Source: an uncultured Candidatus Saccharibacteria bacterium
GTDB lineage: Bacteria > Patescibacteriota > Minisyncoccia > Sungbacterales > SURF-37
DNA length: 64,000 nucleotides
NCBI GenBank assembly: GCA_964363965.1
Contig: CAYIKH010000001.1
Coordinates: forward strand, 727 to 64,726
Direction: 5' to 3'
Shown: positions 2,929 through 55,942 of the stretch, piece by piece
Position numbering within the stretch: the first letter of the stretch is position 1
Layout: each line of letters starts with the position of its first letter
The notes under the pieces: generated by a model
Told to the model about the DNA's origin: nothing
Databases searched by the model: none
The model's input: only the letters and a program-made list of their open reading frames with translations
Made by a program: the position numbers and the translations under genes

Positions 2929-3744
2929 ATGGATAGTCCCGAAAAACTCTTTTCGGTCAAGAACAAGGTCGTCATCATTACCGGCGGCGCAGGCATGCTG
3001 GGCATGGAGTATGCGACCGTTCTTGCTCGTGCCGGAGCGCGTGTGGTGCTCTTCGATATTGCCGATGAGCCCGTCCTCCGCGCCAAGGCCGCCGAGGTGC
3101 GTCGCCGCACCGGTCGCCGGCCCCTGGCGCTCCGCGTGGACATTACCGATGAGCGGGCGGCGAAGAATGCGGTGCGTCTGGTCATCCGGCGCTACGGGCG
3201 CGTTCACGCCCTTGTGAATAATGCGGCCATTAATCCTGAGGTGGAAGGCGGCAGCTCGCGTGCGCAGTTTTCCCCCTACGAACGCTATCCCATTGATCTC
3301 TGGCGCAAGGAGCTTGAAGTTGGGCTTACCGGCGCTTTCATCGTTACCCAGGCCGTGATTCCGGCTATGAAACGGCGGCGGGAAGGCGTCATCGTCAACA
3401 TTGGGTCCATCTACGGCGAGACCGCGCCCGACAACCGCATCTACCCGAAGGGGCAGTTTAAATCTATCGCCTATGCAACGGCGAAAGGCGCGATGCGGAA
3501 CTTCACCCGCGCGCTTGCCTCGTATTTGGCGCCGTTCCAGATCCGCGTGAACCAGCTGACGCCGGGCGGCGTCTGGGCCGGGCAGCCGCCGGCGTTCGTC
3601 AAGAAGTATTCAAGCCGCACCATGCTCGGGCGCATGGCCGAGCGCAATGATTTTAACGGCGCACTCCTCTTCCTCCTCTCCGATGCTTCGCGCTACATGA
3701 CCGGCGCCAATCTCGTGGTGGACGGCGGCTGGAGTGCGTGGTAA
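2929..3744 (+). CDS. Short-chain dehydrogenase/reductase (SDR) family oxidoreductase
   Basis: TGGAGMLG Rossmann motif, NNAAI, and the YATAKGA catalytic Y-x3-K. Confidence 0.8.
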   Translation: MDSPEKLFSVKNKVVIITGGAGMLGMEYATVLARAGARVVLFDIADEPVLRAKAAEVRRRTGRRPLALRVDITDERAAKNAVRLVIRRYGRVHALVNNAAINPEVEGGSSRAQFSPYERYPIDLWRKELEVGLTGAFIVTQAVIPAMKRRREGVIVNIGSIYGETAPDNRIYPKGQFKSIAYATAKGAMRNFTRALASYLAPFQIRVNQLTPGGVWAGQPPAFVKKYSSRTMLGRMAERNDFNGALLFLLSDASRYMTGANLVVDGGWSAW

Positions 3745-45922: not shown

Positions 45923-48253
45923 ATGAAAAACAACCGCTTACGCGTTGTGGCAAATTGGTTCGGGGTTATACAGCTCATTGTCAGATCTTACGGCGATATG
46001 TTAAAGTGGTTTGGTATGTCCCCAACCGAAAAATATCTCTCCTGGATTTTAAAAGGCGGATTATTACTCACGCCTTTTCTTGTTTTCATCGTGACGCGCT
46101 CGCTCTATTTTCCGTTCATCACCGGCAAGAATTTCGCCTTCAGGATTCTCATTGAAATCCTGGCGGTGATTTGGGTTTATGCTGCCTTGCGATATGAGCG
46201 CTTCCGGCCGCGCTTCTCGTGGCTAGGTGCGGCTGTAGTGGTGTTCATTGCCGTGATGGGTTTGGCCGTTATTTTCTCGCTTTCGCCCTACCGCAGCTTC
46301 TGGTCAAACTTCGAGCGGATGGAGGGCTACATCGGCCTTTTACACTTTCTTGCCTACTTCCTGATTCTGGGGAGCGTATTTGCGGGCGAACGCGATTGGC
46401 GGATATTTTTTTCAACTTCACTTGCGGCAAGCGTCGCCATCTCGTTTTATGCGGTGTTGCAGCTTGCCGGCAGACTTGCCATTCATCAGGGCGGGACGCG
46501 AGTAGATGCCACCTTGGGCAATGCCACATATCTTGCTGCCTACCTTCTCTTCCATATTTTTTTCCTGCTTTGGTTTTTACTCCGCTCCCGCGAGCTCTGG
46601 CTCCGCGTCGGCCTTGGCGCAGTCTTAGCATTCGAGCTTGTCATCCTCTACTTCACCGCCACCCGCGGGGCAATACTCGGGCTTCTGGGCGGGTTTATTG
46701 TCCTTGGGCTACTGCTGGCTTTGCTGGAACGCGGAACTCTACGCCGCATCGCCTTGGCCGGCCTGGGAATTGTTGTTCTAATTCCGGCGGTATTTTTCTT
46801 TATCCGGGACACTTCGCTGGTGAAGTCAAGCGATGTTCTAATCCGTTTCGCTTCAATATCGCCCTCCGAGACCACCACCCAGGCGCGCTTCACCATCTGG
46901 AACATGGCCCTGCAGGGTTTTAAGGAACGGCCTATTCTCGGCTGGGGTCAGGAAAACTTCATCTATGTTTTTTCGAAATACTACGACCCATCGCTGTGGC
47001 GTCAGGAGCCGTGGTTTGACCGCGCTCATAACGTCTTTCTGGATTGGCTCACCGCCGGCGGGGTGCTGGGACTTTTGAGTTATCTTGCCATGTTTGCGGC
47101 CGCGGGCTGGCTCCTGGTCTCGGCCCTCCGGGCGCGGACGATTGATGCGGTAACCTTCGGCATCTTTTCCTCGCTCCTGGCGGCCCATTTTTTCCAGATT
47201 CTTTTTGTTTTTGATAATCTTACAAGCTACCTTCTATTTTTCGGAGTGCTTGCCTATGTGCACTCGACAGCGGCCGGGTTCGCTAGCGGTGCGGAGATTG
47301 CGGCCTCTGGCGGCCGGTCAAAGCCAAAAGCCGTCAGCTTGCGAGGGCTCGAGCTTCCCTTGGGTGCTACGGTCGGGGTGACGGCGCTTGTCGCGGCCGG
47401 GATGATCCTGCTTCTTTACTTTGCAAACATCAGGCCGATTATGGCCGCAAAGTCAATTTTGGACGCGCTTCGCTTAAACCAGGTTCATGAGCCGGCCGGA
47501 AAGGTTGATGCCATGATGTTGGAATTCCGGCAAGGGCTTGAATTACGCACCTTTGGCACCATGGAACTCCGCGAGCAGATTTCTCAGACGTCAAACTTCA
47601 TCCTGCGAGATTCGTCGATTGCGCTACAGGATAAAGAAAAATATATCGAGTTTGCCATTCAGGAGCTCGAGGCCCAGCGCACCGCCGTTCCTTCAGATGT
47701 CCGGGCTAAAGCCTTCCTTTCTACGCTTTATGTGGCCGGGGGGCGTCCGGCCGATGCCATCCGCGTCGTTGACGAGGCGCTGGCCATCAGCCAGCGCCGC
47801 CAGCAATTTTACTTTATTGCCGCGGAGGCCTACTTGAACGCCGGCGATAACCAGCGAGCCGTTGAGGTTCTATCCCGCGCCTATGATCTGGCCCCTGATT
47901 ACCCCGAAGCCATTACCAACCTTGCCGTAGTCTATATCTTGAGCGGAAAAGACGAGGAGGCAGAGTTGCTGTTTGAGAAACACTTTGGAACGCGCGTTGT
48001 GGCCAGGGAGCAATATGCCCAGGCGTATCTGCAGATTGGACGATTTGATAAAGCCGCAGAAATATGGGAGGTTATGGCCGCCGCGAACCCCAACGATGCC
48101 AGACTCCACGCTGCGCTCGGCGTGGCTTATGCCCGTTCCGGCCGGCCGCAAGAAGGGATTCGGGAGATTGAAAAAGCCATTGAGCTTGAGCCTAATTTCA
48201 AGTCAGACGGAGAGATGATTATTCAAAGCATCAGAAGCGGACAAATCAGATAA
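45923..48253 (+). CDS. O-antigen ligase/polymerase-like (Wzy_C) membrane protein fused to C-terminal TPR repeats; candidate O-oligosaccharyltransferase
   Basis: The multi-TM N-terminal region carries the Wzy_C signature RAHNVFLDWLTAGGVLGLL. The C-terminal ~300 aa hold TPR-like repeats (AEAYLNAGDNQRAVEVLSRAYDLAPDY...). The start is uncertain; alternative Met codons lie downstream. Confidence 0.65.
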   Translation: MKNNRLRVVANWFGVIQLIVRSYGDMLKWFGMSPTEKYLSWILKGGLLLTPFLVFIVTRSLYFPFITGKNFAFRILIEILAVIWVYAALRYERFRPRFSWLGAAVVVFIAVMGLAVIFSLSPYRSFWSNFERMEGYIGLLHFLAYFLILGSVFAGERDWRIFFSTSLAASVAISFYAVLQLAGRLAIHQGGTRVDATLGNATYLAAYLLFHIFFLLWFLLRSRELWLRVGLGAVLAFELVILYFTATRGAILGLLGGFIVLGLLLALLERGTLRRIALAGLGIVVLIPAVFFFIRDTSLVKSSDVLIRFASISPSETTTQARFTIWNMALQGFKERPILGWGQENFIYVFSKYYDPSLWRQEPWFDRAHNVFLDWLTAGGVLGLLSYLAMFAAAGWLLVSALRARTIDAVTFGIFSSLLAAHFFQILFVFDNLTSYLLFFGVLAYVHSTAAGFASGAEIAASGGRSKPKAVSLRGLELPLGATVGVTALVAAGMILLLYFANIRPIMAAKSILDALRLNQVHEPAGKVDAMMLEFRQGLELRTFGTMELREQISQTSNFILRDSSIALQDKEKYIEFAIQELEAQRTAVPSDVRAKAFLSTLYVAGGRPADAIRVVDEALAISQRRQQFYFIAAEAYLNAGDNQRAVEVLSRAYDLAPDYPEAITNLAVVYILSGKDEEAELLFEKHFGTRVVAREQYAQAYLQIGRFDKAAEIWEVMAAANPNDARLHAALGVAYARSGRPQEGIREIEKAIELEPNFKSDGEMIIQSIRSGQIR

Positions 48254-48439
48254 CCGAAATTCTAAATCCGAATATCGAAATCCGAAACAAATTCGAATTT
48301 TCAAATTCTAAATTTCAAACACGTTTCGGTTTTTAGAGTTTAGGTATTGGGATTTGTTTCGAATTTCGTGCTTCGTGCTTCGGATTTCAGTCTTGGTATA
48401 AACCTGGTTTCCTGGATTAAGGTAATAACTAATGGAAGC
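48254..48439. repeat. Low-complexity intergenic repeat region
   Basis: Degenerate repeats of aaattctaaat / cgaaatccgaa, plus a tandem tcgtgct x2 (48366-48379). Confidence 0.5.
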
Positions 48440-49324
48440 ATGAATAAAATCCCCATTGGCATCATCGGCGTAGGCATGGTCGGCGGCGCCTATGCCGATT
48501 GGTTCGAAACCCAGGGGCATCCCATCCGTAGATACGATCTTTTCAAAAGGATCGGCTCGCTCGAGGAGGTGAACGGCGTTGAGCTTGTACTCATCGCCGT
48601 GCCTACGCCATTTGATGAGGCCACGGACCGATTTGACGGGAGAGCCGTCGAGAGCGCCGTCTCTTCGCTGGTTGGTATGAAGACCGTGATCATCAAGTCA
48701 ACGGTTCTTCCCGGGACGACCGAGATGCTCCAGCAAAGATACCCCCAGCACCGCATTCTTTTTTCGCCGGAATTTCTTACGGAATCAAGCGCCGCCGATG
48801 ACGTTAGTCATCCAAAGATAAACCTCATCGGTTATACCGAAGCATCCCGTTCCGTTGCGCCGGATGTCTTGTCCCTCTTCGCGCGTGCGCCCTTTGAGAA
48901 GATAATGCCGAGCGGCGAGGCCGAATTATTCAAGTACCTCCGTAACGCCTTCTTCGCCACGAAAGTTATCTTTTTCAATCAGATGTATGATCTTTGCACG
49001 AAGCTCGGCATTGACTACGAGGCCATCCGCGAATGCGTAGCGCACGACCCCTGGATCGGGGGACAACACACGATCATCCGGCACAAGGGCTACCGCGGCT
49101 ACGGCGGCAAGTGCCTGCCCAAGGACACGCGCGCATTCCTCCGATTCTCGGCGGAGCATGGCGTCAACCAGCAGCTCCTCGATGTAGTGGATGAGATCAA
49201 CCAGAAGATCACCGCCATTCCCGGCTCATCGACAGAACGTGAAGGTGAAAGGATGGGTGTGAAAGAGAAGTTTGAGTCCCGAGTCCTGAATCAGGAATCC
49301 CGTCAGAGGCGAGGCTCGCCCTGA
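48440..49324 (+). CDS. UDP-glucose/GDP-mannose dehydrogenase family protein, short form lacking C-terminal UDP-binding domain (possibly truncated)
   Basis: IGIIGVGMVGG NAD motif and the GGKCLPKD catalytic Cys motif. At 294 aa it ends in a non-homologous tail where the ~100-aa C-terminal domain would be. Confidence 0.55.
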   Translation: MNKIPIGIIGVGMVGGAYADWFETQGHPIRRYDLFKRIGSLEEVNGVELVLIAVPTPFDEATDRFDGRAVESAVSSLVGMKTVIIKSTVLPGTTEMLQQRYPQHRILFSPEFLTESSAADDVSHPKINLIGYTEASRSVAPDVLSLFARAPFEKIMPSGEAELFKYLRNAFFATKVIFFNQMYDLCTKLGIDYEAIRECVAHDPWIGGQHTIIRHKGYRGYGGKCLPKDTRAFLRFSAEHGVNQQLLDVVDEINQKITAIPGSSTEREGERMGVKEKFESRVLNQESRQRRGSP

Positions 49325-49384: not shown

Positions 49385-50803
49385 CTATCGGCCGCTCCGC
49401 TGCAAGAGCTTAAGAGTAGTTTTTAGCAAGATGGTGAGATCGAGAAAAAGAGAGCGATTTTTAATATAGTAAAGATCGTATTGGATTTTAGTCGGGGCAT
49501 CGGCCACTGAGGCATCGTTTTCCATGTTGGTCTGGGCCCAGCCGGTGAGGCCTGGTAAAACTAGCTCGCGCATGCGGTAGAATGGTATTTCATTCTCGAG
49601 GGCAGATACGAATTCCGGACGCTCCGGCCGCGGGCCGACGAATGACATCTCGCCTAAAATGATGTTCCAAAACTGAGGTAGCTCATCAAGGTAGGTTTTG
49701 CGCAAGAACTCGCCAACCCGGTAGGATCGCGGATCTGGACCAACGGCGCTTTTTTCATGCCCCATCTTCTCCGCGCCAAGCACCTGACTTCTAAATTTCA
49801 GGAAATTGAAAATACGGCCGTTTTTGCCGACTCTGGCCTGGCGGAAGAAAATGATGCCGTCGCCTTCACGGGCGCGGCGCTTTTTGTAATTAACGATGTC
49901 GAGGGGCGTGGAGAGGATAATACCCAAAGCAATAAACGGCAGGAGTATAAGAGCCACAACTCCCAGGATAGTGACCAGCATCAAGTCGAGTATGCGCTTA
50001 GCGAATTCATACCTGGGACGATGCATGCCGACAAGATTCTCCAGGAACCACGTTTCGGTGATGAGCGAGACCGGAACTTTTCCAGTTACGTTTTCATAAA
50101 AGCGCCTGAGATCAACTATGCTTACACCCAGCGGCACGACTCCAAAAGGCGTTTTGGCTAAAGTCGGGGCGCGCCTGGCTTCATGAGCCACGACGATCCG
50201 GCCTATCCGCTTTTCGCGAATAATCCTGCCCAGTTCCCCGCTGAATACCGGCACTCCAGCCGGAAGCGGCGGCTGTGAGGCGCGGTTATTATTTTCAAGG
50301 AAGAATGTGGGGATGAACCCAAGCTGGGGATTGACCGTAAGAAAAGCCGCCAGTTCCAGCACCTCGGGAGCAAAGCCCCAAAAAAGCACCCGTTCTTTGG
50401 TTCTTTGAATGAGGAGGGTGTTGTAAATCTTTCGCCACCCAAAAAGAAATACGGTCAAGGTAAAAAAGATAATTATAAGGGTGGCCAGGGGCCGCAGGCG
50501 GAATTCAGGAATAAGATAGAAGAGCAGGACCGTGACGACAAAATTAAAGGCCATGGCTCTGGCCAGGCGCTCGAAGAACGGCGGTTCGTTTTTAGCTATT
50601 TTGAGGTCATAAAGGCCAAAGGCGGCCAGCCCCCCGAACCAAAGCGCCATCAGGAACGGCGCGGCAAAAAGATAAAGCTTGGTTATCGTCGGCTCAGGCC
50701 TGCCGCCGTAGCGCAAGATAAGCGAGGCGGCGAGCGCCGCGGCAAAGATCACAAGGTCGCAAAGGACGAGAATGAAATTTTTGAGTGCAATCGGCCGGTG
50801 CAT
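49385..50803 (-). CDS. Polyprenyl-phosphate sugar-1-phosphate transferase (WbaP/WcaJ-like initiating phosphoglycosyltransferase)
   Basis: An N-terminal multi-TM region precedes the Bac_transf C-terminus MSFVGPRPERPEFV...LPGLTGWAQ. Confidence 0.8.
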   Translation of the reverse strand: MHRPIALKNFILVLCDLVIFAAALAASLILRYGGRPEPTITKLYLFAAPFLMALWFGGLAAFGLYDLKIAKNEPPFFERLARAMAFNFVVTVLLFYLIPEFRLRPLATLIIIFFTLTVFLFGWRKIYNTLLIQRTKERVLFWGFAPEVLELAAFLTVNPQLGFIPTFFLENNNRASQPPLPAGVPVFSGELGRIIREKRIGRIVVAHEARRAPTLAKTPFGVVPLGVSIVDLRRFYENVTGKVPVSLITETWFLENLVGMHRPRYEFAKRILDLMLVTILGVVALILLPFIALGIILSTPLDIVNYKKRRAREGDGIIFFRQARVGKNGRIFNFLKFRSQVLGAEKMGHEKSAVGPDPRSYRVGEFLRKTYLDELPQFWNIILGEMSFVGPRPERPEFVSALENEIPFYRMRELVLPGLTGWAQTNMENDASVADAPTKIQYDLYYIKNRSLFLDLTILLKTTLKLLQRSGR

Positions 50804-50819: not shown

Positions 50820-51980
50820 TTAGCGGTTTTGATAAACTGTGATGGTCTTGGCGATCATGGCCTCAATGTCAAAACCTGTGGCGATGCGTTTTTGGGCTTC
50901 TTGGGCCATGGCTTGACATCGGTCGGGTCTGTCGATTAGAGCCAAGATGGCCTTGGCTATAGCTCCAGCGTTTTTGGGCGGCACGATCAGGCCGCTTTTG
51001 CCGTCAGAGATGAGATCAGGGATGCCGCCGACATTCGTGGCTACAACCGGCAAACCGGCGGCCATAGCTTCCATAATAGAATAGGGCAGACCTTCTTTCA
51101 CTGACGGCAGTACGAAAATATCAAGTCCCTTGAGGTAGCGCGCTGCATCTGGCATGAAGCCAATGAGATGCACGATATTGCCGAGGCCAAGCGTCTGAAT
51201 TTGCCGTTCGATGGCAACGCGATCTTCGCCTTCACCGATGACCATAACTTTGAACTTTAAATTTTGAGCTTTGGATTTTATTAGCTTGATGGCATCAATC
51301 AGGTAAGTCAGGCCCTTATTTTTAGTGAGTTCGGCAATAGTGCCAATAAGAACTAAATCGTGATCCTCTTCCTGCCCAATGGCCTGCATAAAAAAGGCCC
51401 GGGCTGATTCTCGGGGCCGGAAGTCAATTGGGGCGATGCCATGGGCAATGAGATAAAGCTTGGTTTCCGGAATAAACCAGCGCGCCGTTGCAAGATCCGC
51501 CCGATCTATGAGGATTATTTTATTCTGGAAAAGCGACGAAAGCCAGCTCAGGAAAGAGATGGTCAATTTCTGCCACCATGCCCGATCTTCTCTAAACGGC
51601 CAGCCATGTACCGTGAAAGTCACCAGTGACCAGTGACCAGTAACCAGTGACGCAAGCTTGGCCGCTATGGCGCCGAGGCCGCCGACTTTTGAGCTATTAA
51701 GGTGGACGATATCCGGTTTTTCGCGGTAAATAATTTTTATAAATGAAAAGAACGTCAGCAACTCTTTGGCGAAGTTGATGTCGCGTTCTAGGCCGGCTAT
51801 TGAAATAATACGGACACGTCGCTCTTCAAGACGCTTCACCAGCGCTCCTCCGCCGCCGCAGACCACAGCAATATCAAATTGATCCGGCGGCAGGCGAGTA
51901 GCCAGGTCATAAATATATTTTTGGGCGCCGCCCCAATTAGATTTTGTGATTACATATAGAATTTTTTGACGCTGATTCAT
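50820..51980 (-). CDS. GT4 (GT1-fold) glycosyltransferase
   Basis: VLPSVKEGLPYSIMEAMAAGLPVVATNVGGIPDLI is the E-x7-E region of GT4. Confidence 0.8.
   Translation of the reverse strand: MNQRQKILYVITKSNWGGAQKYIYDLATRLPPDQFDIAVVCGGGGALVKRLEERRVRIISIAGLERDINFAKELLTFFSFIKIIYREKPDIVHLNSSKVGGLGAIAAKLASLVTGHWSLVTFTVHGWPFREDRAWWQKLTISFLSWLSSLFQNKIILIDRADLATARWFIPETKLYLIAHGIAPIDFRPRESARAFFMQAIGQEEDHDLVLIGTIAELTKNKGLTYLIDAIKLIKSKAQNLKFKVMVIGEGEDRVAIERQIQTLGLGNIVHLIGFMPDAARYLKGLDIFVLPSVKEGLPYSIMEAMAAGLPVVATNVGGIPDLISDGKSGLIVPPKNAGAIAKAILALIDRPDRCQAMAQEAQKRIATGFDIEAMIAKTITVYQNR
51622..51651 (-). repeat. Heptanucleotide tandem repeat (ACCAGTG)x4 inside GT4 coding sequence
   Basis: accagtg accagtg accagta accagtg ac encodes SLVTGHWSLVT on the minus strand. 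The unit length is not a multiple of 3. Confidence 0.8.
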
Positions 51981-52183
51981 ATAGAAATCCTCATAGATAC
52001 TGGTTATTCCTTAGCAACAAGTTATCCACACTTAGTAGTGTTGTAATACCGCAGGGGGGGTAATAAAATGAGCTCAACGCCCAGTAAGAGGTTGTCGAAC
52101 CTTTTCAATCAATAATACTGGAGCGGAGTCACGTTCGTTCCTTAGACAACGTTGATTCTGGTTTAATTTTTCATACTAAGCAT

Positions 52184-55836: not shown

Positions 55837-55942
55837 CAACTGTGGATAACTCGATTTCAGGGTTTCCCCTTTTCTTCCGGAAACGAGTTTAGTGAGTTCC
55901 ATAGTTATCCACAGTTGCAAATTTTTAAACTCACCATATAGT
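55837..55942 (+). promoter_or_regulatory. Inverted repeat plus sigma70-like promoter upstream of hpf
   Basis: caactgtggataact (55837-55851) is the reverse complement of agttatccacagttg (55903-55917), with a nested gtttcc..ggaaac between them. TTGCAA (55915-55920), a 16-nt spacer and TATAGT (55937-55942) put the predicted TSS within a few nt of the ATG at 55950. Confidence 0.45.

Follow-up and report, generated by a model that had tools for sequence, protein, structure and literature searches.

A frame-shifting heptanucleotide repeat in a GT4 glycosyltransferase gene of a groundwater Patescibacteria genome and its counterparts in orthologous genes

Patescibacteria are attached to host cells and rely on their own surfaces for this way of life. 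To our knowledge, very little has been reported on how these surfaces are varied. Is a short tandem repeat within a glycosyltransferase gene of such an organism a switch that turns a surface-glycan step on and off, or a coding repeat of another kind? This question is raised by a 64-kb stretch of DNA (the window, which is the whole stretch that was analysed) from the genome of an uncultivated Patescibacteria ("Sungbacteria") organism of Hainich groundwater. The original prediction for this DNA named two candidate phase-variation switches, a heptanucleotide array inside the glycosyltransferase gene and a G7 tract in the divergent intergenic region upstream of it.

The gene carrying the array matches Glycos_transf_1 (PF00534, 2.3e-41) in its C-terminal part and Glyco_transf_4 (PF13439, 9.4e-15) in its N-terminal part. 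An EX7E-type motif is found at E295...E303, of which E295 is invariant and E303 nearly so in 35 sequences. The AF2 model (pLDDT 90.6, pTM 0.90) shows the two Rossmann domains of a GT-B fold, and its top Foldseek matches are HepE, BshA, PglA and MshA (E ~1e-21, TM 0.75-0.85). By both domains, the E-x7-E motif and the modelled fold, the product is assigned to the retaining GT-B enzymes of CAZy family GT4. Its neighbours in the window are a polyprenyl glycosylphosphotransferase, a Wzy_C-TPR protein and a nucleotide-sugar dehydrogenase, and these gene types mark the setting as a predicted surface-glycan locus. The polyprenyl glycosylphosphotransferase lies directly downstream and probably forms one operon with GT4; the pairing is kept in orthologous loci. 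On the other side a Thr-rich protein is encoded divergently, for which no match was found in Pfam or NCBIfam. Its synteny with GT4 is kept in L002, L086, L087, L093 and L134.

Table 1. Positions of the genes, repeats and motifs at the GT4 locus in the window.
Feature	Position	Strand	Basis or remark
Polyprenyl glycosylphosphotransferase (Bac_transf)	49385..50803	-	Pfam PF02397 7.3e-53; NCBIfam TIGR03025 302 bits, above cutoff
Predicted GT4 (GT-B fold, retaining-type) glycosyltransferase gene	50820..51980	-	ORF, 386 aa
Site B degenerate heptanucleotide array	51246..51273	- (within GT4)	TRF, 76% matches
Site A heptanucleotide array	51618..51651	- (within GT4)	TRF period 7, 4.9 copies, 88% matches, score 54
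TTATCCACA (DnaA-box-like) motif	52022..52030	+	42-50 nt upstream of GT4 start
Sigma-70-like promoter candidate TTGTAA-N17-TAAAAT	52041..52069	+	Consensus scan, 9/12 matches
G7:C7 homopolymer	52054..52060	.	Divergent intergenic region
Thr/Ser/Gly-rich protein, 264 aa, N-terminal hydrophobic segment	52184..52978	+	Divergent from GT4

The array within GT4 is called Site A here, and its TRF score ranks second in the window. The + strand at 51619-51651 reads GTC ACCAGTG ACCAGTG ACCAGTA ACCAGTG AC. Positions 51622-51649 comprise four complete 7-nt units, of which the third is degenerate (G->A), and a partial unit flanks them on either side. Both the sequence and TRF thus agree with the predicted (ACCAGTG)x4 with one degenerate unit inside GT4. 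The coding strand reads GTC ACTGGTT ACTGGTC ACTGGTC ACTGGTG ACT and encodes S110-LVTGHWSLV-T121. The four units contain two mismatches. Both are synonymous, each falling on the third base of a Val codon, and no perfect stretch exceeds 20 nt (about 2.9 units). In the AF2 model the segment runs from the last residues of helix 97-114 through a loop of 4 aa into strand 119-124, and these blocks are confidently folded (pLDDT 88-91). The array is non-random, beyond chance: its local period-7 score is 16, against a maximum of 11 in 100 third-order-Markov 64-kb sequences, and in the same simulations no non-3n period between 4 and 11 scored higher than 15.

Slips of the array were simulated in silico. 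Gain of one unit yields a product of 131 aa, loss of one unit 117 aa, and gain or loss of two units 124 aa, compared with 386 aa for the intact protein, while gain of three units keeps the frame (393 aa). The expectation that unit gain or loss would frameshift GT4 is therefore borne out in silico, with truncation to 117-131 aa. Two features of contingency loci are found at Site A, namely a non-3n repeat unit inside an ORF and a one-unit change that shifts the frame and truncates the product. Their usual length and purity (typically at least 6 units, or a homopolymer of at least 8 nt) are not reached.

Orthologues of GT4 number more than 4,000; the array was compared across 165 orthologue loci, taken from the 80 best tblastn matches of each scan, a limit that biases the sets against frameshifted alleles. 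L002, the closest orthologue (79% amino acid identity), carries (ATGGGTT)x3 + GTGGGTT at Site A where the window has (ACTGGTY)x4; the two tracts are equal in length, with parallel changes in every unit. Other units occupy the site in L170, (TTGGYCA)x4, and L086, (GTCACTG)x2.3, and further lineages have arrays of TTACTCG, CTACAAA, CCTACAA, ACGCTAC, TAAACTT, ACTACTC and perfect 14-mers. Different heptamers at one site in orthologues are, by this comparison, the mark of concerted evolution, which indicates that slippage has acted. The alignments indicate gain and loss of units at the Site A tract in the course of evolution. Comparison of orthologous loci, which the original prediction had proposed as a check for repeat variation, thus reveals unit turnover in the form of different heptamers at the same site.

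Site A is accompanied by a second array within GT4, Site B. Its coding strand reads CAAAGCT CAAAATT TAAAGTT CAAAGTT and encodes about K235-V245, again a helix end, loop and strand start, here in the C-terminal domain. Among the 165 orthologue genes listed, 37 of 51 period-7/14 arrays fall in Site A (aa 100-125) or Site B (aa 225-250), two segments of 26 aa each that together cover 13% of the gene (binomial P ~1e-21). The density of such arrays in GT4 is 2.8-fold above that in 663 kb of flanks, and their ratio to arrays of in-frame periods is 24:9 within GT4 and 31:61 outside it (Fisher P = 1.8e-4); both P values are inflated, since the orthologue counts are phylogenetically non-independent. 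At Site B the orthologues carry (AAATCCA)x4.3 (L086, 100% matches), (TTACTCG)x4.6 (L133) and (AAGTTAA)x4.6 (L093). Perfect units are found in L133, in L086 at Site B, and also in L148 and L117. An identical (TTACTCG)4 tract is present at both sites of L133, and related units at both sites of L094. Three more arrays are found in a paralogous GT4 beside the L133 orthologue. Further arrays sit upstream of neighbouring genes. Copy numbers are narrow family-wide, 4.0-5.3, with none above 5.3 in the orthologues listed, and the tract size of four units plus a partial one is uniform in coding and non-coding DNA alike. For arrays of at least 3.5 copies, period 7 accounts for 14 of 16 in GT4 and 18 of 30 in the flanks.

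Length variation at Site A and G7, which a working switch had been predicted to show, did not appear. Five independent assemblies (two strains) share identical tract lengths at both. Across the gene plus intergenic region, L003, L004 and L005 show 100% identity with the window, and L001 has 9 SNPs and no indel. The same Site A tract is carried by a partial MAG protein at a contig end, and a protein cluster look-up for length variants returned only the window protein, a 99% variant and this contig-end partial. The assemblies are consensus sequences at 3-7x coverage, so that minority length variants are not detectable in them. A tblastn frame analysis found no out-of-frame allele in the 165 orthologue loci listed, in sets biased toward intact genes; only three orthologue pairs are 100% identical, and the arrays are identical within each pair. 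A protein search with the N-terminal 117 aa of GT4 returned 61 short proteins. Those on long contigs were rejected as OFF alleles, as they break elsewhere (at A-runs or G-runs, e.g. P0139, P0170) or are not clean. L171 was rejected because its Site A contains an N10 scaffold gap together with foreign sequence, and L170 because it diverges completely after (TTGGYCA)x4 and its contig then ends. These truncated fragments may instead reflect assembly trouble at repeats.

The G7 tract is the weaker evidence for a switch. As predicted, it lies in the divergent region, at a distance of 74-80 nt from the GT4 ATG (51980) and of 124-130 nt from the + strand ORF, upstream of both. No other G/C run in the window reaches 7 nt, but 1.7-8 runs of at least this length would be expected under Markov models of order 1-3. 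G7 thus does not exceed chance, and it is absent in the closest orthologue L002 as well as in L087 and L093. The tract falls in the 17-nt spacer of the sigma-70-like promoter candidate, which is weak, since one site was found where 1.0 is expected in shuffles; as read from the alignment, L002 keeps the -10-like element in the form TAGAAT. To be noted, this candidate, if real, faces the Thr-rich gene and not GT4, and no GT4-strand promoter with C7 in its spacer was found by scan or by eye. G:C tracts of at least 7 do recur in the GT4/Thr-rich intergenic region of L086 (G7), L134 (C9) and L136 (C8), where about 0.14 are expected (Poisson P about 4e-4, in a post hoc test). L134 and L136 represent one distant relative in replicate samples. 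Over 2.6 kb they differ only by a single SNP and by C9 versus C8; at 6-7x Illumina coverage the latter difference may be genuine or may stem from misassembly. The nearby TTATCCACA motif occurs as 3 exact copies in the window, where 0.18 would be expected. L002 and L086 also have it upstream of GT4, and L134 has a near-match there. In the window and L134 the homopolymer lies 25-27 nt upstream of a conserved TGTGGATAA-like box. An Rfam scan of the intergenic region found nothing.

On balance, Site A is probably, though by no means certainly, a slippage-generated coding repeat at one of two family-wide heptanucleotide hot-spots in Patescibacteria GT4. The three frames of the repeat would give a 7-aa-periodic peptide (SLVTGHW-SLVT), which in the model closes an alpha-helix and, after a short loop, opens the next beta-strand of the N-terminal Rossmann-like domain. 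Slippage would have added and removed units over evolution, and this turnover would explain the different heptamers at the same position in orthologues today. The present tract is in frame (ON) and has synonymous mismatches only. On this reading it would be partly decayed, kept in place by protein-level selection and already fixed in the population that was sampled. A slip of one or two units in either direction would truncate GT4 and cost one surface-glycan step. We infer both the slippage mechanism and a low present-day slippage rate; since slips would be rare, the tract could switch at low frequency at most, and no such switching is demonstrated. The G7 tract is an intergenic homopolymer that would fall by chance in the spacer of a weak promoter-like site of the Thr-rich gene. 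What stands of the predicted phase-variation switch is a real, non-random, frameshifting repeat with unit turnover, whereas polymorphism is not seen and the perfect run is short. In addition, L087, L088, L089, L093 and L095 encode a similar peptide (SL.TGH..LV.F) in non-repetitive DNA; this agrees with constraint at the protein level and is, in part, the outcome that the original prediction had named as evidence against a switch. Present-day phase variation at GT4 is plausible but unproven.

The main competitor is a true contingency locus, in which Sites A and B are kept by second-order selection for mutability and GT4, and with it a surface glycan or protein-linked glycan, is reversibly turned ON and OFF by slipped-strand mispairing, in the manner of (CAAACAA)n in Neisseria pglE. 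We regard it as possible but unlikely. The class of gene and the surface-glycan locus would fit, as would the family-wide excess of non-3n repeats at two sites, lineage-specific and often of perfect units, and the concerted evolution, which implies repeated slippage. Non-3n repeats are normally purged from coding DNA, and their recurrence at two sites, in paralogous GT4 (the three extra arrays beside L133) and upstream of neighbouring genes fits contingency-locus theory and would be odd for a by-product. Moreover, unit turnover at constant protein length requires out-of-frame intermediates or 3-unit jumps, and such intermediates, if they occurred, would mean that OFF states are tolerated. Heptanucleotide SSR switches have precedent (PMC1976384, PMC2651432), but the known cases have 6-38 units and vary broadly between strains (PMC2651432, PMC1976384), compared with only 4.0-5.3 units here. 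The imperfect window tract, its constancy in the five assemblies, the lack of OFF alleles at the listed loci and truncated N-terminal fragments that are not clean array slips also argue against an active switch. A bolder form of the idea is an ancient, family-wide pair of heptanucleotide contingency sites in Patescibacteria (CPR) GT4 and its paralogues, mutable across orders, with units drifting in concert amid a lineage-wide preference for 7-nt repeats of about four units; this proposal is tentative, and we would not expect it to hold.

The remaining readings look weaker still. That there is no DNA-level phenomenon at all, only a conserved peptide (SLVTG...SLVT) and codon choice reached by few point substitutions, is very improbable. 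It would account for the peptide SL.TGH..LV.F in the five relatives that encode it in non-repetitive DNA. The SLVTG codons (TCA CTG GTC ACT GGT) already make 2.1 heptamer copies, as in L086, and about two non-synonymous changes (R->W, P->S) lead from an L086/L087-like sequence to the window array. However, L002 has changed all units in parallel and breaks the conserved peptide pattern, perfect arrays of unrelated units occupy the same site in many lineages, and the array score was reached in 0 of 100 simulations. For G7, a role as promoter-spacer homopolymer that tunes transcription of the Thr-rich gene, possibly also of GT4, by length change is distinctly unlikely. Its position in the TTGTAA-N17-TAAAAT spacer, the recurrence of G:C tracts in L086, L134 and L136 with C9 and C8 in the last two, and the shared spacing to the TGTGGATAA-like box speak for it; against it are a single G7 at chance level, a promoter match no better than shuffles, absence in L002, L087 and L093, constancy in five assemblies, a length below most proven switches and the possibility that C8/C9 is an assembly error. 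The period-7 dominance, the uniform tract size in coding and non-coding DNA, the same tract at both sites of L133 and the related units of L094 could also suggest arrays with a sequence-independent DNA or RNA role or a dedicated generator (multimeric-protein binding, templated addition, tracts of ~30 nt). We know of no array-generating mechanism of such kind, and this reading is extremely improbable: units vary between loci and lineages, so that no single binding specificity results, and frame quantisation (1+3 units) and doubling (7->14->28) account for part of the uniformity. Programmed ribosomal frameshifting, for which there is no slippery-site plus structure logic, and DGR mutagenesis, for which there is no template/variable repeat pair, were dropped, also because the units differ arbitrarily between lineages.

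Should the hot-spots prove to be true contingency sites, surface-glycan switching would reach beyond host-associated pathogens to groundwater episymbionts, and this would be the first described SSR-based surface-glycan phase variation in these episymbiotic ultra-small bacteria; our literature search found no paper tying Patescibacteria to SSR phase variation. Even on the conservative reading of a slippage-generated coding repeat, the locus would be a natural example of frame-shifting microsatellites that build and remodel folded segments (a helix end, a loop and a strand start). In these genomes, moreover, 7-nt arrays of roughly 4 units predominate for no evident reason.

Several known systems can be compared with this locus. 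Promoter-spacer homopolymer switches include the poly-G/C tracts of Neisseria porA, opc and fetA and the poly-G tracts of Treponema pallidum tpr. As in these, the window G7 lies between -35-like and -10-like hexamers, so that a 1-nt change alters the spacer length. Unlike them, it has only 7 nt, belongs to a predicted promoter, is invariant in the five assemblies and is not kept in the nearest orthologue. The cyanobacterial STRR (short tandemly repeated repetitive) heptanucleotide repeats, reportedly described by Mazel and co-workers in 1990, share the preference of a genome lineage for 7-nt tandem repeats; they are mostly intergenic and longer than the window array. The L170 unit TTGGTCA equals what we take to be STRR2, a resemblance that may be coincidental, and we know of no link of STRR to glycosyltransferase loops or phase variation.

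A further parallel is the intragenic (CAAACAA)n of Neisseria pglE, a glycosyltransferase of O-linked protein glycosylation (PMC1976384; PMC10425976). Both are heptanucleotide tandem repeats in a glycosyltransferase ORF of a surface-glycan pathway, where a unit change shifts the frame. The Wzy_C-type, phosphoglycosyl transferase and Thr-rich neighbours of GT4 would fit a glycan or protein-glycosylation locus comparable to that of pglE. The pglE tracts, however, are long (e.g. 15 copies = OFF), early in the ORF and strain-variable, with documented ON/OFF states, whereas the window GT4 has 4 units in mid-domain that encode a folded segment, and neither OFF alleles nor length variants were seen. 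In Haemophilus influenzae, heptanucleotide SSRs occur in the hmw1A/hmw2A promoter, (TGAAAGA)n, and in a TonB-dependent receptor, (AACAACC)n (PMC2651432). There too the units have seven bases and vary by locus, and slipped-strand variation is accepted in promoters and ORFs; these SSRs differ in their 6-38 copies, clear inter-strain variation and occurrence in pathogens, and they are without two conserved intragenic hot-spots common to distant orthologues. Within the CPR, a Gracilibacteria genome has a hypervariable gene of in-frame 9-mer (PTD) repeats (PMC6851277), the only CPR case found in our literature search that ties tandem repeats, slipped-strand mispairing and population variation together. 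Its 9-nt unit keeps the frame, and the tract is very long and visibly polymorphic in reads, whereas the window array is frame-shifting, short and monomorphic in assemblies.

The heptanucleotide array in the GT4 gene (Site A) is a real, non-random repeat that shifts the reading frame. On the plus strand, positions 51619-51651 read GTC ACCAGTG ACCAGTG ACCAGTA ACCAGTG AC, the second-best TRF array in the 64-kb window. Its local period-7 score is 16, against a maximum of 11 in 100 simulated third-order-Markov 64-kb sequences; for any period not divisible by three (non-3n) the simulated maximum is 15. In silico, +1 and -1 units give products of 131 and 117 aa instead of 386 aa, +/-2 units give 124 aa, and +3 units keep the frame. 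Both the ACCAGTG tandem repeat and the frameshift upon unit gain or loss, as put forward in the original prediction, are thus confirmed.

Coordinates of the GT4 gene, repeat arrays and nearby elements (window positions unless gene positions are indicated; L-numbers are orthologous GT4 loci)
Feature	Position	Strand or location	Sequence or support
GT4 glycosyltransferase, 386 aa	50820-51980	-	Pfam, AF2 model, fold matches
Site A array	51618-51651	in minus-strand GT4 ORF	TRF period 7, 4.9 copies, 88% matches, score 54
Site B array	51246-51273		CAAAGCT CAAAATT TAAAGTT CAAAGTT; decayed member
G7	52054-52060	intergenic, 74-80 nt upstream of GT4 ATG
Promoter candidate	52041-52069	+	TTGTAA-N17-TAAAAT; consensus scan, shuffles give as many sites
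TTATCCACA	52022-52030	+	exact match
TTATCCACA	55841-55849	-	exact match
TTATCCACA	55905-55913	+	exact match
Nucleotide-sugar dehydrogenase ORF	48347-49324
Degenerate 7/14-nt repeats	48243-48400	AT-rich intergenic
L133 array	gene nt 330-362	Site A	(TTACTCG)x4.7, perfect
L133 array	gene nt 736-767	Site B	TTACTCG x4.6, perfect
L086 array		Site B	(AAATCCA)x4.3
L094 array			(CTACAAA)x4.6
L101 array			(CCTACAA)x4.3
L149 array			(ACGCTAC)x4.4
L116 array			(TAAACTT)x4.4
L008 array			(ACTACTC)x3.4
L170 array			(TTGGYCA)x4
L148, L117, L134 arrays			perfect 14-mers
L104 insert	gene nt 693-743	Site B	GTCAAGGTTAAACCTTGAC
L141 insert	gene nt 699-737	Site B	GTCAAGGTTAAACCTTGAC

The phase-variable length polymorphism proposed for both tracts is not observed. 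Neither the heptamer array nor G7 changes in length between the window and four near-identical assemblies, compared as consensus sequences at 3-7x coverage, in which minority length variants are invisible. Three of these assemblies, independent of each other (L003, L004, L005), match the window at every base across the gene and the intergenic region (100% identity). The second strain, L001, has 9 SNPs within 63 nt and zero indels; all SNPs fall in GT4 gene nt 130-192 (window ~51789-51851), with none otherwise over 1364 nt, and the variable N-terminal peptide is GGGGALVKRL versus GGRGPLAERL. This cluster looks like a short recombination tract. Beyond these sequences, the 90% protein cluster of the window GT4 holds only a contig-end partial with an identical peptide. 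No frame breaks in GT4 are found by tblastn in 165 loci (best 80 per scan, a search in which broken genes are disfavoured). A search with the N-terminal fragment yields 61 short proteins; those on long contigs are rejected as OFF (frameshifted) alleles, since their break points are unrelated to the array, for example an A-run in protein P0139. Two loci break at Site A itself, and neither is a clean slippage product. L171 carries an N10 scaffold gap (3009-3018) and ~170 nt of foreign sequence exactly there, and the L170 contig (2880-3056) loses all similarity immediately behind its array and ends ~170 nt on. These breaks may reflect assembly trouble at repeats.

Our survey of 165 orthologous genes with DNA, drawn from GTDB genomes, contigs of metagenomes and targeted searches (best 80 per scan), identifies Site A as one of two family-wide hot-spots. 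Period-7/14 arrays occur 25 times at Site A (query aa ~105-121), 12 times at Site B (aa ~232-246) and 14 times elsewhere, and the windows taken for the two sites (aa 100-125 and 225-250) amount to 13% of the gene length (P about 1e-21 in a binomial test, inflated since orthologues are not independent). The units differ by lineage and are often perfect. Array density is 2.8-fold higher in GT4 than in 663 kb of flanking DNA, and the ratio of period-7/14 to in-frame periods is 24:9 in GT4 versus 31:61 in the flanks (Fisher P = 1.8e-4). Arrays with at least 3.5 copies are mostly of period 7 (14/16 in GT4, 18/30 in flanks; L006-L169, ~850 kb). Their size, both inside and outside coding sequence, runs from 4.0 to 5.3 copies with a mode of 4.3-4.7, and no array exceeds this range; quantisation by reading frame (1+3 units = +21 nt) together with doubling (7 to 14 to 28), for which 14-mer arrays at x2.3-2.6 copies are cited, explains the coding cases only. 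A paralogous GT4 beside L133 (minus-strand ORF at L133 357-605) contains three heptamer arrays, one with the unit TTACTGG, close to ACTGGTT of the window, and some other flank arrays sit just upstream of neighbouring genes. In ~70 of the best 80 GTDB orthologues the Site A loop is 5 aa shorter and repeat-free. L133 carries an identical perfect (TTACTCG)4 tract at both sites, and L094 shares related units between them. At Site B, L104 and L141 have no heptamers but a palindromic unit of 20-23 nt, present twice and in frame; it resembles a short repeat, able to form a hairpin, that was inserted in the same loop.

The 79%-identical orthologue L002, from well H51, has its own heptamer array at Site A. 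It reads TC ATGGGTT ATGGGTT ATGGGTT GTGGGTT GTC, aligned to TC ACTGGTT ACTGGTC ACTGGTC ACTGGTG ACT on the window coding strand, with equal unit number and protein length (386 aa). Identical changes are repeated in each unit. Such parallel change is impossible by independent substitutions and is concerted evolution of the array, which points to repeated slipped-strand gain and loss. The comparison indicates that slippage acted at Site A also after the split from L002.

Selection at Site A appears to act on the protein. Both mismatches in the window array fall on the third base of a Val codon (GTT, GTG). In the AF2 model, Site A runs from the final turn of helix 97-114 (SLVTG) through a loop of 4 residues (HWSL) into the first part of strand 119-124 (VTFTVH); in the C-terminal domain, Site B has the same type of position (helix 224-237, loop, strand 243-248). 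Since both sites are confidently modelled, the arrays are predicted to encode folded structure rather than disordered linkers. The suggestion that the repeat might merely reflect a conserved peptide, SLVTGHWSLVT, encoded elsewhere without it, holds in part: a similar pattern, S-L-x-T-G-H-x-x-L-V-x-F, is encoded by non-repetitive DNA in L087, L088, L089, L093 and L095 of the same-length subclade, but L002 keeps the repeat and changes the peptide to SWVMGYGLWVV. L086 retains just 2.3 units at Site A.

The AF2 model of GT4 is confident (pLDDT 90.6), with fold matches to HepE, BshA, PglA and MshA. The nearest proteins come from metagenomes of Hainich groundwater, sampled at wells H43 and H51, and named relatives are 'Candidatus Sungbacteria'/Parcubacteria (Patescibacteria/CPR). 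A polyprenyl glycosylphosphotransferase (TIGR03025 above cutoff) lies directly on the 3' side of GT4, and the neighbourhood also holds a nucleotide-sugar dehydrogenase and a protein with both Wzy_C and TPR. On the upstream side of GT4, divergent genes encode a 264-aa protein rich in Thr, Ser and Gly, which has a hydrophobic segment at its N-terminus, and a PG_binding_1 protein; their arrangement with GT4 is kept even in L134, an orthologue of 41% identity. Judged by this gene content, the locus may plausibly serve a surface glycan or protein O-glycosylation. Of the UDPG_MGDP_dh domains, the dehydrogenase, of only 325 aa, matches the N-terminal and the central one but no C-terminal one, and it may be truncated or atypical. 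Between it and the Wzy_C-TPR gene lie degenerate repeats (AAATCCG x6.4 at 67%; 14-mers x2.3-2.4), to which a downstream (TTCGTGC)x2.6 is partly complementary (AAATCCGAA / TTCGGATTT); they may form a long imperfect hairpin or terminator.

The G7 tract does lie in the intergenic region shared with the divergent gene, as predicted, but its case as a switch is weaker. It is the sole G/C run of at least 7 in the window and is unremarkable by itself, because Markov models expect 1.7-8; it is missing in L002, where a -10-like TAGAAT is retained, and also in L087 and L093. It falls within the 17-nt spacer of a promoter candidate aimed at the Thr-rich gene, not GT4. A role in promoter tuning, which we consider quite improbable, would draw on the recurrence of G:C tracts: L086 has G7 in the equivalent intergenic region, and L134 and L136, replicate samples from well H41 differing otherwise by one SNP over 2.6 kb, have C9 versus C8 (L134 ~1878-1886, about 105 nt upstream of GT4); as in the window, a conserved TGTKGATAA box follows 25-27 nt further downstream. 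Tracts of at least 7 nt thus recur in three lineages in ~1.75 kb, where about 0.14 would be expected (post hoc P about 4e-4). Against this, with coverage of 6-7x the C8/C9 difference may stem from misassembly. In the same intergenic region, 42-50 nt upstream of GT4, is a DnaA-box-like motif, TTATCCACA, with 3 exact copies in the window versus 0.18 expected, all intergenic. The other two, inverted relative to each other, lie upstream of the 55950 ORF, whose counterpart in the identical locus L003 is of the ribosomal S30AE type. L002 and L086 keep the motif ahead of GT4 (TGTGGATAA), and L134 has a near-match there (TGTTGATAA); it may act as an operator or belong to a promoter.

For the heptamer array, we lean towards a coding repeat that was shaped by slippage and is now held by protein-level selection, with rare switching at most. 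Neutrality does not easily account for non-3n repeats that recur at two sites, in a paralogue and close to promoters, and units that were homogenised at constant length must have passed through out-of-frame intermediates that were tolerated, or have changed in jumps of 3 units. These observations make a true contingency locus a serious rival, though we regard it as unlikely. No present-day polymorphism between in-frame and frameshifted GT4 is seen in the near-identical consensus assemblies or among the 165 loci.

Tandem repeats (SSRs) inside glycosyltransferase genes are of a classic kind. To our knowledge, a pair of conserved hot-spots within one gene, with units that drift, is an unusual variant. 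Our literature search found no report tying Patescibacteria to phase variation by SSRs; among CPR bacteria, the nearest case is a hypervariable gene with an in-frame 9-mer (PMC6851277). The longest perfect stretch of the window array is 2.9 units, whereas a heptanucleotide tract of 15 copies is one example from pglE (PMC1976384) and heptanucleotide SSRs of H. influenzae have 6-38 (PMC2651432). With so short a perfect stretch, slippage is expected to be far slower than in documented switches.
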